A stretch of 64,000 nt of DNA from Desulfomicrobium sp. GTDB taxonomy: Bacteria > Desulfobacterota > Desulfovibrionia > Desulfovibrionales > Desulfomicrobiaceae. Numbering within the stretch: the stretch's first letter is position 1; every line of letters begins with the position of its first letter. The position numbers were made by a program, and so were the translations under genes. The notes under the pieces were generated by a model. It made no database searches, was not told the DNA's origin, and saw only the letters and a program-made list of their open reading frames with translations. Below, piece after piece: positions 1 to 5,442 of this stretch. Location: the NCBI GenBank assembly GCA_040768745.1, contig JAXGMI010000001.1:1824001-1888000 (forward strand), written 5' to 3'.

Positions 1-798
1 GTATGGTTTCAGAGCGTCAAAGTAAGCACGGGGAACCATGAAGGTGTCTCTGAAATCAATCTCGCGAGTTTCTTTTACGATGTTACCGATGGTGATGAAC
101 GGAACGCCTGTCGGAGATTTAGGCGGCGGTAAATGGTCGCCGTCCGTGATGTCTGTTGCCAAGTCCGCAAGCGTAACTGGTTCTCCTGTTTGCCATTGGT
201 CCGCAAAGACGGATTGGAGATGGCTTTCGAAGAGGGCGCGGGCGTTTTGGAGATTCTTTTCGGCGTTGGCTTTGGCGGTGGCGAGGCCCGCAAATGCTTC
301 GTCGAGAATGGCGACGATCCGCTGCTGTTCGGGGAGCGGAGGGACGGGAATATCGACACTTTGAAGTTTTTGAATCGTCAGAGTATCGACCGTTGCGCCA
401 TTGCCTCGGTCGAGTTGGTCAAAGAAGGAAGGCGACTTCAGCCATAAATTGACGAACTCGCTGCTTACCTCGGCGGCTCGCTTCATCCAGAGAACGCTCG
501 CGTCCTTGAAGTAAAACTTGTCGCTGCTTCGGACAACATGTGAGTTCCCGATTGTTCCAATCGCGGTGATGACAATGTCGCCCGCTTGAGGAACGCCGTA
601 TTTTTTCGATAGCTCGGCAAAGTGCTTCTCTGAGATGAAAAGCTCGTTGTTTACGAAACCGTCGGCTGCCAGTCGCGTCACTTCGCGCCCACGGTAGAAG
701 GGAACGCCCTCAGTCTTCCATTGGGATTTCAGAACGCGTTTGCTTGAGCCAATCTGGTAGAGATCGCTCAGCTTTTTTTTGGGCCACCCCTTCTTCAT
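1..798 (-). CDS. hsdS: Type I restriction-modification specificity subunit (5' part; runs off left edge)
   Basis: Hand translation from ATG 798: MKKGWPKKKLSDLYQIGSSKRV...GDIVITAIGTIG...IPVPPLPEQQRIVAILDEAF...DITDGDHLPP. Open to position 1; typical TRD plus the conserved PPLxEQQRIV spacer. Not in the ORF track because its stop is outside the window. Confidence 0.93.
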   Translation of the reverse strand, partial: MKKGWPKKKLSDLYQIGSSKRVLKSQWKTEGVPFYRGREVTRLAADGFVNNELFISEKHFAELSKKYGVPQAGDIVITAIGTIGNSHVVRSSDKFYFKDASVLWMKRAAEVSSEFVNLWLKSPSFFDQLDRGNGATVDTLTIQKLQSVDIPVPPLPEQQRIVAILDEAFAGLATAKANAEKNLQNARALFESHLQSVFADQWQTGEPVTLADLATDITDGDHLPPPKSPTGVPFITIGNIVKETREIDFRDTFMVPRAYFDALKPY

Positions 799-896
799 AG
801 CAGAGCCTTGATGTTGCTCAATACTACCGTGTTTTCGGCAGGATGACAGATGGAAATCATGGAAAGTATGTGATTGAAGTGCGTCATAGGCATCAT
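795..896 (-). CDS. 33-aa linker mini-ORF ending in an hsdM-like tail (possible translational coupler)
   Basis: MMPMTHFNHILSMISICHPAENTVVLSNIKALL*. Its ATG overlaps the upstream stop (ATGA) and its stop overlaps the hsdS ATG (ATGA). Confidence 0.45.
   Translation of the reverse strand: MMPMTHFNHILSMISICHPAENTVVLSNIKALL
850..876. repeat. Degenerate 9-bp tandem array downstream of the four-helix-bundle gene
   Basis: + strand ATGGAAATC ATGGAAAGT ATGTGATTG. Confidence 0.6.
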
Positions 897-1585
897 TTCT
901 TGTGTTGCTGGTTGCGGTGCGCGAGCCGCGCCTGGAACATCCGTTCGCGGAGGCCGCCTTGTTCCAGGAAATCTGTTTCCAACCGACGCAGTTGCTGGTC
1001 GAGCAGGTAGTTGGTCTGGTGAATCAGGCAGATGGCAATGTTGGCGATGACCTCGGGCGGTCGGGTTTCCACATACTCACGGTAAAGTTCAAAGGTATGT
1101 GGGGTCTTGCGGCCGAGGCGGCGGACAAATTGCGCTTCCTTGGAGTCCTTGTCCCAAATGACGTGGTCGCGCACGCGAAGATAGTCGCGGTAATCGGCGA
1201 GCAGCTCTTCGAGACTGGCCCGCCCGACATTGGTCAGCTTGATCTCGGATTCCTTGGAGGTGAGCCCGGCTTTGCTGCCTTCAAGGATGTTCTGCTTGCC
1301 GGAGCGCGCGGCCTGGATCATCTGGTCCACGGTGCGGTCGCCCTTGCCGAGGTACTTGTGGGCGAAGCGGTGCGTGATGTCGTAGATGACTTCGGCTTTC
1401 TGAAAAGAGAGCAGGGTTTGGTAATCGCCGCGCGGGGGGATGATGGGATGGGCGTCGGGCGAAGGTGGCTGAGAATGGGAGATATGGGAATTATGGGAGC
1501 CAGGGGAAATATGATTATCGGCATTTCCATGTTTTTCATTCTGCCCATCATTCCCATGCTTCCCATATTTCTCATCAGTATTCAT
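893..1585 (-). CDS. Four-helix-bundle protein with suffix domain (23S rRNA IVP/Avd-like; TIGR02436 + TIGR04258-like)
   Basis: GDYQTLLSFQKAEVIYD...RTVDQMIQAARSGKQNILEGS...KLTNVGRASLEELLADYRDYLR...NIAICLIHQTNYLLDQQLRRLETDFLEQGGLRERM; low-complexity repeat-encoded N-terminus. Confidence 0.88.
   Translation of the reverse strand: MNTDEKYGKHGNDGQNEKHGNADNHISPGSHNSHISHSQPPSPDAHPIIPPRGDYQTLLSFQKAEVIYDITHRFAHKYLGKGDRTVDQMIQAARSGKQNILEGSKAGLTSKESEIKLTNVGRASLEELLADYRDYLRVRDHVIWDKDSKEAQFVRRLGRKTPHTFELYREYVETRPPEVIANIAICLIHQTNYLLDQQLRRLETDFLEQGGLRERMFQARLAHRNQQHKK
1475..1575. repeat. Palindromic 9-bp periodic array (five units facing six inverted units)
   Basis: + strand ATGGGAGAT ATGGGAATT ATGGGAGCC AGGGGAAAT ATGATTATC (1475-1519). 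Minus-strand ATG-units start at 1575, 1566, 1557, 1548, 1539 and 1530. Confidence 0.85.
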
Positions 1586-3036
1586 AGCAGTTCCCGGATA
1601 GTGGCCAGCACCTTTGCGCTCTCAGCATCCAGCGCCGCGATTTCGTCCATGATTTCCTGTGGGCTGCGGTGTTTCACCTCTTCGCCGTTGTTCGGGTTCT
1701 TGGCCGAAAGGTCAAAGCTCGTCCGATCTATGCCGGTAACATCCACACTCCAGCTTTTGGGCGAGTCGGCCTTGGTTTTTTGCAGCTCCACGAACTCGGC
1801 CAGATCGGCGTCGTTCAAGGCCGTGGTCTTGCCCAAACTGCGGCCGGGGTCGAGTTGATAGAACCAGACCTTGCGAGTGGGCCGGCCTTTTTCGAAAAAG
1901 AGGACCACGGTCTTCACGCCAGCACCCTGGAAGGTGCCGCCTGGACAATCGAGGACCGTATGCAGGTCGCAGCTTTCCAGCAGCATTTTGCGCAACGACA
2001 CTGAAGCATTGTCCGAGTTGGACAGGAACGTGTTCTTGATGACCACGGCCGCCCGGCCCCCGGCTCTCAGCATCTTGATGAAGTGCTGCAGGAAGAGGAA
2101 GGCCGTCTCGCCGGAACGGATGGGGAAGTTCTGCTGGACCTCTTTGCGCTCCTTGCCGCCGAAGGGCGGGTTGGCCAGGATCACGTCGAAGCGGTCCTTG
2201 TCCTGGATGTCGGCCAGGTTTTCGCTCAGGGTGTTGGTGTGGACGATGTTCGGGGCCTCGATGCCATGCAGGATCATGTTCATGATGGCGATGACATAGG
2301 CCAGGGACTTCTTTTCCTTTCCGTAGAAGGTGCGTTCCTGGAGGGTCTTCAGGTCGTCCGTGGTCAGGTCCGGCTTGGCCGTGAGATAGGTGAAGGATTC
2401 GCACAGGAAGCCGGCCGAACCGCAGGCGCCGTCATAGATGCGCTCGCCGATCCTGGGCTGCGTAACCTGGATCATGGCCCGGATGAGCGGGCGCGGCGTG
2501 TAATATTCCCCGCCGTTGCGGCCCGCGTTGCCCATGCGCTTGATCTTCTCTTCGTACAGGGCCGAGAGTTCGTGCTTTTCGCTCTGGGAACCGAAACGCA
2601 GTTCGTCCACGTGGTCGATGATGTCGCGCAGGGTGTAGCCGCTGCGGATCTTGTTTTTGATCTCGCCGAAAATCTCGCCGATCTTGTATTCGATGGTGTC
2701 CGGCCCGGTGGCCCGCTGCTTGAATCCGTGCAGGTAGGGGAAGAGCTTGCGGTCCACGAAGTCGACCAGATCATCCCCGGTCATGGCCTTGTTGTGGTCC
2801 AACTTGCCGCCGCCGTTCTTGGGCGCGGCCCACGCCTCCCAGCGGTAGGGCGCATCAAGGATGAACGAATACTCCCGCCCTTCCAGGGCCGCTTCCGTGG
2901 CCTTGTCCTGCTCCAGCGCATCGAGATATTTGAGAAAGAGCAGCCACGAGGTCTGCTCCGTGTAGTCGAGTTCCGTCGTGCAGCCGCTCTCTTTCCAAAG
3001 CGCGTCGTCGATATTCCTGAATGCTTGTTCGAACAT
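1582..3036 (-). CDS. hsdM: Type I R-M N6-adenine DNA methyltransferase subunit
   Basis: MFEQAFRNIDD start; GEYYTPR, DGACGSAGFL (SAM-binding) and ANPPF (catalytic) motifs. Confidence 0.95.
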   Translation of the reverse strand: MFEQAFRNIDDALWKESGCTTELDYTEQTSWLLFLKYLDALEQDKATEAALEGREYSFILDAPYRWEAWAAPKNGGGKLDHNKAMTGDDLVDFVDRKLFPYLHGFKQRATGPDTIEYKIGEIFGEIKNKIRSGYTLRDIIDHVDELRFGSQSEKHELSALYEEKIKRMGNAGRNGGEYYTPRPLIRAMIQVTQPRIGERIYDGACGSAGFLCESFTYLTAKPDLTTDDLKTLQERTFYGKEKKSLAYVIAIMNMILHGIEAPNIVHTNTLSENLADIQDKDRFDVILANPPFGGKERKEVQQNFPIRSGETAFLFLQHFIKMLRAGGRAAVVIKNTFLSNSDNASVSLRKMLLESCDLHTVLDCPGGTFQGAGVKTVVLFFEKGRPTRKVWFYQLDPGRSLGKTTALNDADLAEFVELQKTKADSPKSWSVDVTGIDRTSFDLSAKNPNNGEEVKHRSPQEIMDEIAALDAESAKVLATIRELL

Positions 3037-3259
3037 GGCGTTTCTAAGGGTTGGCCAGCGCATAGCGGCCAGTGGGCAATGGTTTGGAATCAGAAAACCA
3101 GGTGTTTTTCTAGGTTACAACAGCCGGAGCAGACAAGGCCAATTTTGCAGCCGTGGCCCGGCGGCGGGTTCGGGGTGTTAAAAGAGCAAAAAATTTCTTT
3201 TTGCAAAAAAAATATGAGTATGTTATTTAATAACCATGAAAAACTGTTAAAACGCCGCG

Positions 3260-4351
3260 TCAGGCACAGGCCTGCATCGGCTGAACATTGGGTCGAAGTA
3301 TGTGCCCAAGGAATTTGAGATACAAAAAACACAGAACCCGGATGAACTTCCGGAAATTGAACGCGGCACAGGCCATGAACAGATTCACGGCGTCGCCGAC
3401 CTGGCCTTTGAGGTAATTGCGCAGCATCCTGTGGTCGTTCTTGAGGTGGCCGATGATCGGTTCGATGGCCGCACGCCGACGGAACCGTTCCCTGGCTTGC
3501 CGTTTGTCAGAAGCTGTTTTCGTCCGCTTGCCTGACTCGGGAATTTCGATGCTGGTCACGCCGACCTTGCGCTTGCCGCGGTATCCTCGGTCGCAGATCG
3601 CCATGGTCGGCCGTTGCCCCACGATGCTTTCGACTTGAGACAGAACCGCAGGCAGCGTGTGCCCGTCGAAAGGATTGTCCTGGAAGGACAAGGCGCCAAC
3701 GATGATGCCGCTGGTCTTGGTCACGGTCACGGAGGCTTTGGCGCCGAACTCGTACTTCTTGTGAGCCTTGCCTTTGCTGATGCAGGACACTCCGGGTTCG
3801 TGGAGGCTGTAGATCTTGCCGGTGTCGGATCGCTGCTCTGGCTGCATTCCGGTCTTCTTCCACAGTTCGACCGAGCAGCGGGGCAACTGGGCATCCAGGT
3901 CAGTTTCCAAGGCGATCCGCTGAAACCGTTGCCGCAAAATCTCGGCGGAAGGAACGCGTCCAAGGCCAAGGCTGGTCGCGAAGAAATCGTCGCCGTAGTA
4001 CTCACGAACATGGTCGAAATCCGTTTTGCCTTGGCACATGAGGCCGACCAATGTGCGGAAAATTTCGCGCTCCTTGATCTGCGGAGCTTTTCCAGGCCCA
4101 AGACGATCGACCAGTGTATCCAGACCGCAAACCCTGGCCATCTCGCTAATCAGGGCCAGGCCGACATGACCAATGTTGTTTCCTTCGTTTCGCTTGATAT
4201 CGGTGATGAGCATTGCAAACTCCTGTCGCACCCAATGGGTGCAAAAACTCATTCAGGAAAAGCAAACCCAATATACCGGTATCATTGATTTATTTCAAGT
4301 ACAAAATGTTTCAAAACTCTATATTCAATGCAACTTTTTCACGGATTTAGG
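3260..4351 (-). mobile_element. Chimeric IS remnant: IS1380-family 5' half fused in frame to IS5-family 3' half (ORF 3260-4213)
   Basis: N-terminal GHVGLALI...GKTDFDHVRE...GRVPSAEILRQR is IS1380-like; C-terminal KIYSLHEP..CISKGKAHKKYEFG..CDRGYRG..RRRAAIEPIIGHLK is IS5-like. Candidate left end CCTAAATCCGTGAAA at 4351; right end not identified. Confidence 0.8.
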
Positions 4352-4551: not shown

Positions 4552-5442
4552 ATGAATAAAATCATTTTCTTATACAAATTTATTTTTTTAAATTTTTTCA
4601 TTATTTCATTATCTTTAATTTTTATGAATATAAATTTATTTGCTTCAGAATTAAAATATAATATGAAAAATTCAATACAAATTGTAGATGAATCAACTGG
4701 AAAAAAAACATCGTATGAATTACTGGATACAGTATACGATCAAAAATTTAAAAATTTTGTTGTTTCAATTTCAAACTATATATCTGACAATATTGAAAAA
4801 TTAATAAATTTTTATAATTGTTCAAATGATAATCCGAAAATTGAACTTTGTTTTGTCTATAGGCCATTGATTCTTCAAAAAGCAGGAGGAGAATGCAGTA
4901 GTCTTATCACTGATGATTTGAAATCAAACATTATCTCTCATTTGAAGAGCCCTTGGGTGACCATTACAAGAAATCGTTCACCAATGCTTACACTTCATGC
5001 GGTGTTCATGTGGAACGAGCGGCAAGTTCTGATTGATCAGGCTTTGCTGGCGGGGTCTGATATTGCGCAAATCAAGTCGAACGCATCGATTGAGGCCGCT
5101 GTGTTTGAAAAATATGTTGAGGAGTATGCAAATTCTATCCTCCTTGCTCCGACTCCGGAAGCTCAAGCTGAAGCCAATGTCCGTATCGTTGAACGAATTC
5201 CTGCGGATATCTTGTGGCTTTTCAGGCAAGGGTGGCAAAGCACTCACGCACCATTCTCTATGGAATCGAGGCATACTCTTCATCTTGTTCTTGAACGTGC
5301 TGTGAATCAATATATCGATCTGTCAAAAGCACTTTTTGACAGATGTTTTATTTCAAAAAATACAAATGAACAATTTCATAATATTTTCTCTTTACATTCA
5401 ATTATTGATATCAACAAGCATAAAATTAAAAAGTTTCATTAA
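4552..5442 (+). CDS. Hypothetical exported/membrane-anchored protein, very AT-rich 5' half
   Basis: 296-aa ORF with a hydrophobic N-terminus; directly upstream of, and co-oriented with, the RTX gene. Confidence 0.7.
   Translation: MNKIIFLYKFIFLNFFIISLSLIFMNINLFASELKYNMKNSIQIVDESTGKKTSYELLDTVYDQKFKNFVVSISNYISDNIEKLINFYNCSNDNPKIELCFVYRPLILQKAGGECSSLITDDLKSNIISHLKSPWVTITRNRSPMLTLHAVFMWNERQVLIDQALLAGSDIAQIKSNASIEAAVFEKYVEEYANSILLAPTPEAQAEANVRIVERIPADILWLFRQGWQSTHAPFSMESRHTLHLVLERAVNQYIDLSKALFDRCFISKNTNEQFHNIFSLHSIIDINKHKIKKFH

Follow-up and report, generated by a model that had tools for sequence, protein, structure and literature searches.

According to the accessible text of PMC4990558, the 23S rRNA IVS of Coxiella burnetii carries S23p, an ORF of the same family as the protein described here, inside a 28-bp terminal stem that is cut by RNase III in vitro. 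For Avd, the accessible part of 10.1101/2023.10.23.563531 reports that all five protomers bind an 11-bp stem-loop and that flipped-out bases enter the crevices between the protomers. The four-helix-bundle family is also found beside cas4 and in cas loci, in a paper whose accessible part leaves repeats unmentioned (PMC3936711), and it is only named in the accessible parts of PMC5524665 and PMC7159879. The literature we covered, which left out most subscription papers and supplements, held no description of a link between such a gene and repeats, and the gene together with its repeats is likely an undescribed module. Short tandem units in inverted, pairing blocks are known from the cyanobacterial STRR heptamers. 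TRAP is an oligomeric ring that reads one RNA unit per subunit, in single-stranded form; its fold is unrelated to that of the bundle protein.

An earlier note on this DNA had described inverted, complementary-type 9-nt arrays around a four-helix-bundle gene. Our analysis of the locus and its relatives bears this out, the arrays being non-random, complementary, shared by homologues and tied to the gene.

The operon and its 9-nt arrays

All features of the locus lie on the minus strand of the window, the whole 64,000-nt stretch that was analysed. The type I R-M methyltransferase gene hsdM (1582..3036; Pfam N6_Mtase 1.7e-61 and HsdM_N) ends with a TGA (1584-1582) that overlaps the ATG of the four-helix-bundle gene (893..1585). 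The latter is a 230-aa ORF made of a 50-aa repeat-coded leader and a 180-aa core with a suffix domain. The conserved core starts at P51 (896..1435) and is under purifying selection (pN/pS 0.17 over 76 homologues). It includes the codon of Arg52 (1432-1430), the residue that co-varies with unit position 7, and the TIGR04258 suffix domain (residues 177-225; 911..1057). A 33-codon linker ORF follows (MMPMTHFNHILSMISICHPAENTVVLSNIKALL; 795..896), which overlaps by ATGA both the stop of the bundle gene and the start of the specificity subunit gene hsdS (1..798; Pfam Methylase_S 2.2e-16). The hsdS gene leaves the window and encodes 401 aa in the genome. Every join of the module with the hsdM-hsdS operon is an ATGA overlap. 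The hsdM 3' end followed by ATGAA (1581..1626; direct-repeat family D17, spacing 787) has a degenerate second copy at 794..839, with 28 of 46 bases equal as counted on the sequence. Both this copy and the 3' array lie within the linker ORF, which appears to keep hsdS coupled, and the junctions look built for coupled translation through an intact mRNA. The earlier note had mentioned neither the hsdM-end copy nor the coupled ORF.

A promoter and terminator scan of 700-3300 gave 0 promoters and 4 terminator-like sites, against 3.6 expected. The window locus (L231) had no Rfam match at E 0.1, and among the four loci searched only generic, below-threshold hairpin matches were seen, in L020 and L256. 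Upstream of hsdM, the ORF at 3260-4252 (minus strand) matches IS1380 transposase models with its N-terminal part and IS5 models with its C-terminal part, both under cut-off, and is likely a fused or nested IS remnant. A 296-aa ORF at 4552-5442 (plus strand) has no Pfam or NCBIfam match. It is followed by a 992-aa ORF whose repeats we presume to be calcium-binding from their look.

The 230-aa protein matched the NCBIfam families TIGR04258 (1.2e-23, 82.7 bits, cut-off 40) and TIGR02436 (1.3e-5, 25.4 bits, cut-off 24), and scored 21.4 bits with Pfam PF05635, below the cut-off of 33.8. The model of the 180-aa core was all-helical with a pLDDT of 92.4. In VIA it ranked Xcc0516 first (2gsc; Z 15.2, rmsd 1.6 Å over 110 residues), BT_0352 second (2rld; Z 13.1), Avd in the DGR complex third (8ub7; 12.3) and Avd fifth (4dwl; 11.5). 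The four long helices of the model superpose on 2gsc and Avd, which points to the Xcc0516/Avd structural family. Foldseek also returned 2gsc as its best match, at an E of 0.078, and a PDB sequence search with the single protein gave 0 matches, a profile matching 2gsc only at E 0.18. Only four-helix-bundle families match and the model is all-helical, and we recognised in the protein no domain of a nuclease, transposase or RT, HUH transposases and GIY-YIG nucleases included. TIGR02436 genes were present in 88 of 151 sampled genomes of the phylum; the GxxExxY family had no member in the window's own genome.

The 5' array opens with six purine-rich units of the xATGGGAAx type (1523..1576), which are, from 1576 to 1523, GATGAGAAA, TATGGGAAG, CATGGGAAT, GATGGGCAG, AATGAAAAA and CATGGAAAT, read in frame as D/N/H-G-K/N. 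Five pyrimidine-rich units of the xxTCCCAT type follow (1475..1519). They are read as S-H and are predicted to pair with the purine array; three of the five hold an exact TCCCAT, and degenerate units continue to about 1445. At the other end of the gene stand two ATG-led 9-nt units, ATGATGCCT and ATGACGCAC (879..896), which are probably decayed, and the three pyrimidine-rich units of the 3' array, CAATCACAT, ACTTTCCAT and GATTTCCAT (850..876), with a degenerate fourth to 841. In a 45-nt window, the period-9 self-match was 0.64 at the 5' array, a value matched by 1.7e-5 of the windows of contig C1, and 0.53 at the 3' array (0.17% of C1 windows); periods 6-8 and 10-12 were ordinary at the arrays, being matched by at least 2% of windows. 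Among the 72 inverted repeats in 1-4000, the one at the 5' array is the longest (40 nt, 73%). Sequence and period-9 statistics thus put the arrays where the earlier note had placed them, and the stop-free translated frames in a 9-nt register were as it claimed. The downstream ATG units that it counted in the pattern are present as well; the GRRA core is missing from them, and their duplex with the 3' array reaches only -3.8 kcal/mol.

We then compared predicted folds with shuffled controls. The segment 1465-1590 folds at -35.8 kcal/mol (z -2.3), and 4 of 200 dinucleotide shuffles were as good. The 40-codon leader folded better than synonymous resampling (z -4.7, 0/1000 as good) and codon-order shuffles (z -2.0, 33/1000), and showed no excess over permutation of its own synonymous codons (z -0.6, 250/1000). 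The whole region 790-1600, which the earlier note had suggested folding, had no extra stability over shuffles (z -0.93, 4/20 as good), and the 3' flank alone gave no stable hairpin (z +0.47 and -0.44).

Arrays, protein clades and the insertion site

A genome scan gave 542 relatives among 599 stretches, and the best 80 of the 542 together with the window made up 81 loci. At least two strict tandem units lie within 200-250 nt of a gene end in 70 of these 81, and in none of them did we find arrays in the first 440 nt of the core or 300-3000 nt upstream. The hosts belong to more than 10 phyla, mixed on the gene tree, and the arrays take 14 architectures. The genes hsdM or hsdS were nearby in only 21 of the best 80 relatives.

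Leader units keep one frame (158/166 and 123/153), because translation starts upstream, and downstream units are found in mixed frames. Codon choice in the leaders differs strongly from the cores, with His CAT:CAC at 183:10 versus 65:130 and Gly GGG at 132/167 versus 65/433. In the comparison of the window with two congeners, pN/pS was 0.08/0.11 and 0.21/0.28 for the leader, versus 0.024/0.26 and 0.037/0.40 for the core. Since the codons are set by the repeat, the leader pN is near its pS and the leader pS is lower than that of the core, the constraint acts on nucleotides.

Each suffix-family clade has its own 9-nt unit, with an ATGGGA, ATAGGAC, TCGGAC, TGGAC or AGGGAC core, which often also occurs in frame inside the gene. 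On the protein tree the unit labels require 16 changes, versus 43.1 when shuffled (0/200 as few); this is a quick tree of 72 rows that includes the repeat-coded loop columns, and 16 rows have no label. Such matching of unit and clade is also expected from the co-inheritance of adjacent DNA. A rule by which the suffix domain would mean 9-nt units was rejected, as G010 has a 9-nt array just after a short bundle gene. In one suffix-protein clade (L230, L233-L239, L241-L243) the next gene begins with an EDDL..SALQH motif, and we take this gene to be Cas4. The window's own genome (G000) also holds four short four-helix-bundle genes in one operon (C2:801-13147; L081-L085), each with its own 7-nt unit. 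Three of them have reverse-complementary 3' arrays, L083 has arrays in the same orientation, and an internal stop interrupts one of the genes.

At residue 52 the window's clade has Arg, and the other clades have His. Units with mostly C at position 7 were found in 0 of 71 Arg52 loci versus 14 of 16 non-Arg loci. Four non-Arg members are nested in the Arg clade: L049 and L059 have all-C units, L065 has C in 3 of 8, and L039 has none, having lost the Arg and kept A-type units. When 3' arrays alone were counted, 2 of the 4 informative non-Arg loci were mostly C, versus 2/54. The co-variation is suggestive and is confounded by linkage to the 5' array, since Arg52 lies a few bases from that array and 5'-end chimeras could explain the pattern.

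Arrays without a gene occur mainly in genomes that hold the bundle gene. The window's genome (3.1 Mb) has one gene-less array of the window's unit (C3:23802-23880), which forms a near-perfect hairpin (L256, C3:23795-23890) directly after a terminator-like stem, between genes that are presumably ppiC and mtnA. This hairpin is orthologous across the genus and not new, and the 12 loci that could be parsed, out of 15, fold into long hairpins with varied units. A pattern of three units was present in 3 of 251 genomes of the phylum, with 1 match in G000, 1 in G233, which has no suffix gene, and 28 in G091, which has a gene of the same clade. Three other unit patterns were found in 4, 16 and 3 of 35 gene-positive genomes versus 0, 1 and 0 of 35 negative ones, counts that include many matches at the gene itself as well as related genomes that are not independent of one another. 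Many gene-less arrays are present in G091 and G051, and dispersal is strong in few genomes only. In G000 a one-sided array of a different unit (TGGAC core; C1:1457443-1457475) lies just upstream of a gene, and we found no gene of the cognate clade in that genome. On contig C14 of G091 (L292:1201-1800 and L289), in-frame repeat hairpins with the pyrimidine block first (SHKSHPSHSSHHGTYGTHGTYGTYG) were seen within MmeI-like genes; the hairpins in the MmeI-like genes of this genome occur in both polarities.

The hsdM-hsdS junction behaves as an insertion site. In the congener G155 the site is empty and hsdM runs straight into hsdS; in G157 and G169 it is filled, with the same unit and an open linker ORF, the G169 version being two units longer and restarting at a second ATG. 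When 80 hsdM homologues were classed by eye, 53 were coupled directly to hsdS, 7 carried the bundle family, 19 had other cargo (YhcG, Bro-N, KilA-N, HEPN-like and GIY-YIG genes) and 1 was unclear. A downstream copy of the hsdM end was found in 12 of 81 bundle loci versus 0 of 64 control stretches, and also after other cargo in four loci. We rejected it as a fresh target-site duplication, since it equals its own hsdM end in 20/33 and 7/11 of other loci's copies are closer, and as specific to the bundle gene, since it is also present after other cargo. The copy therefore belongs to the junction hot spot and is an old inherited arm, and we infer from the sequences that the module spread by recombination between R-M loci.

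Several further features of this junction were observed. In L034, near-identical 101-nt direct repeats (hsdM end and purine array) stand on either side of the gene, the only fresh-looking duplication, and L055 has 131-nt, more diverged repeats of the same composition. In L197 (G157) codon 5 of the hsdS that follows the cassette is a stop, and the three congeners differ in the N-terminal region of hsdS right after the hsdM-end copy. Other repeat types are found at the junction in L093, L132, L160, L097, L113, L109 and L128. They include hairpins that precede small genes, with GIY-YIG confirmed in L160 alone, units resembling ACGCGGAGA in L097 and L113, and 7-nt arrays in L109 and L128.

What the arrays may do

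We tentatively favour the reading that the protein binds hairpin RNA of its cognate repeat, here over its own first codons, because of the shared Avd fold, the clade-matched units and the gene-less hairpins. The 9-nt arrays and the four-helix-bundle gene would form one module, whose parts likely travel together, and the protein would bind imperfect stem-loops of its own repeat type. Its target here would be the hairpin that spans codons 1-40 of the mRNA encoding it. A ring-shaped oligomer may recognise bases that bulge from the periodic stem, in the manner of Avd on its RNA, and this binding may damp the protein's own translation or stabilise the RNA. The module has no mobility enzyme and would spread as a passenger, by recombination through hsdM and the carried hsdM-end copy. 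With a period of 9 nt, the arrays could lengthen, shorten and lie in reading frames without breaking the translational coupling of hsdS. A binding site for the encoded protein was one of several roles suggested in the earlier note; it became our best reading, with the binding itself supposed from the clade-matched units and the Avd fold. Several observations count against it. Some divergent family members have few or no flanking units, both sides changed in only 1 of 14 consensus pairs among the L256 orthologues, and a comparison of congeners by eye found uncompensated substitutions in the 5' arrays of the genus, so that the window copy may be decaying. The mean leader folding energy of 77 homologues (-33.2, versus -35.4 for far flanks, with G+C not corrected) counts against selection for structure.

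The earlier note's idea of an IVS-like stem leads to a rival reading, in which pairing between the 5' purine array and the 3' array loops the gene out and RNase III excises it from the operon mRNA. We consider this improbable at the locus. The alternative pairing it assumed is possible on paper, as the duplex of the two arrays reaches -24.7 kcal/mol, matched by 3.6% of 1000 random segments; however, the prediction gives 32.9 expected pairs to the local 5' hairpin (-36.2 kcal/mol) and 0.01 to the stem that loops out the gene, and of the two the local one is the first to be transcribed. Since the local hairpin far outweighs the looping stem and the downstream ATG units barely pair, the loop around the gene is not favoured here. 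Of the 81 loci, 26 have a local pair at the 5' end and 19 one at the 3' end. The 5' purine and 3' pyrimidine arrays do occur together in 30 of the 81, and in 10 of these 30 the strict pattern finds a local partner at neither end; the Coxiella IVS is a precedent for a gene of this family in a cleavable stem, as far as the accessible text of PMC4990558 goes. In short paralogues with 7/8-nt units the own partner was the best match in 17/31 inverted and 5/31 direct comparisons (far-flank control 6/28), whereas in the 9-nt clade this was so in only 4/77 inverted and 7/77 direct ones. The IVS-like layout therefore fits the short members, and the 9-nt clade looks, by its sequences, more like a gene between two self-contained hairpins. 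The in-frame leader and the junctions suited to coupled translation also speak against this reading, as do, weakly, two RNA-run contigs that cross the 3' array uncut (X2 431-922 and X4 803-1018), though these come from one study at a depth of 3-4 and may be DNA. Coverage of the gene is interrupted in X2 and X5, which at that low depth says nothing either way. Somewhat more room, though still on the unlikely side, should be given to a selfish repeat system at the DNA level, REPtron- or Ssn-like, in which the protein acts on ssDNA hairpins, either by itself or together with a polymerase or recombinase of the host. It would start new arrays or lengthen existing ones, near the gene and genome-wide, and the RNA hairpin would be a side effect. 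This reading would account for the gene-less arrays of G000 (C3:23802-23880; C1:1457443) and the many in G091 and G051, for the MmeI-like genes with in-frame hairpins of both polarities, and for arrays within the bundle genes themselves. The hairpin can fold on either DNA strand (-22.1 and -21.6 kcal/mol), and the layout is the same as in RAYT-REP (PMC3733652) and SsnA-SRM (PMC11893778), to judge from the accessible parts of these papers. Yet the protein has no nuclease, transposase or RT domain, and the 3.1 Mb of G000 contain just a single gene-less array with this unit, a genus-wide orthologue. Eight sequencing runs (contigs only) gave no joint removing the cassette; their sole joint (1033-1273) has one side of 37 nt and probably derives from a paralogue.

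The arrays may also be self-complementary relics, grown by slippage and carried along with the gene, in which case the protein would have an unrelated job and would not read them. Decay without compensation in congeners would fit this, as would the freely varying copy number and layout (14 architectures among 81 loci) and a junction that takes other cargo (19/80), four times also with the hsdM-end copy. We find this reading quite doubtful, because it leaves unexplained why the unit at the two ends of the gene and within it is particular to each clade, why the four G000 paralogues each have a different 7-nt unit, and why gene-less arrays lie mainly in gene-bearing genomes. That the arrays are kept for an encoded peptide (a His-rich DGKNGK / SHSSH leader) is hardly credible. 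The leader reading frame is fixed, but its codons are nearly exclusively CAT, AAT and GGG, its pN is close to its pS, and sister clades keep arrays in untranslated DNA; 3' arrays occur in all frames. A much broader reading, which we regard as speculative and unlikely, would make four-helix-bundle proteins repeat-reading, nucleic-acid-binding rings with a residue-to-base code. Each clade would seed hairpin arrays with 7-9-nt units of its own and expand them around the gene, within it and at distant sites. The code would include the choice between a purine and C at unit position 7 by Arg or His at residue 52. Such systems would propagate themselves without a transposase, nuclease or RT, and rRNA IVSs and DGR Avd would be their domesticated offshoots.

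Comparison with known systems

The clade-matched hairpins offer a specific candidate ligand for each protein, which bears on the role of the IVS protein family outside DGRs. A protein that does read the unit would be a compact hairpin binder, possibly open to reprogramming, and would provide an origin for one class of tandem repeats dispersed in bacteria. The locus further illustrates a way in which a defence operon with coupled translation can take up passenger genes and not be silenced.

With ORF-bearing 23S rRNA IVSs, as described in the accessible text of PMC4990558, the module shares the protein family (PF05635/TIGR02436; Xcc0516 fold), complementary brackets and a sporadic horizontal spread. 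Unlike them, it lies in an mRNA operon between hsdM and hsdS and not inside an rRNA gene. Its arms are tandem 9-nt arrays instead of one 28-bp stem, with the local hairpin predicted to dominate over a terminal stem enclosing the ORF, and its protein has an extra suffix domain and is apparently translated through ATGA coupling.

DGR Avd shares the fold (VIA Z 12.3 and 11.5) and, by the accessible part of 10.1101/2023.10.23.563531, sets a precedent for a pentamer on a bulged stem-loop beside its own gene. The sites described here differ in being periodic arrays with clade-specific units. No reverse transcriptase was recognised among the ORFs of the surrounding 12 kb (C1:1816000-1828000, by eye) or by a family scan of the four nearest genes.

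REPtrons (RAYT and REP; PMC3733652) and SsnA with SRM/NTS (PMC11893778) are, in the accessible parts of both papers, likewise small genes flanked by their own hairpin repeats, with cognate repeats dispersed in gene-bearing genomes and sometimes inside ORFs; strong dispersal is seen in few genomes in our case. The bundle protein differs from theirs in having no HUH or GIY-YIG domain. Its repeats consist of 9-mers, head to tail and variable in number, that stand in inverted blocks and have no GTAG/CGTC tags. The STRR heptamers differ from the arrays in unit length, which is 9 nt here, and in that the unit described here is tied to a specific gene family. For a ring that reads repeat units, TRAP serves as the model analogy.
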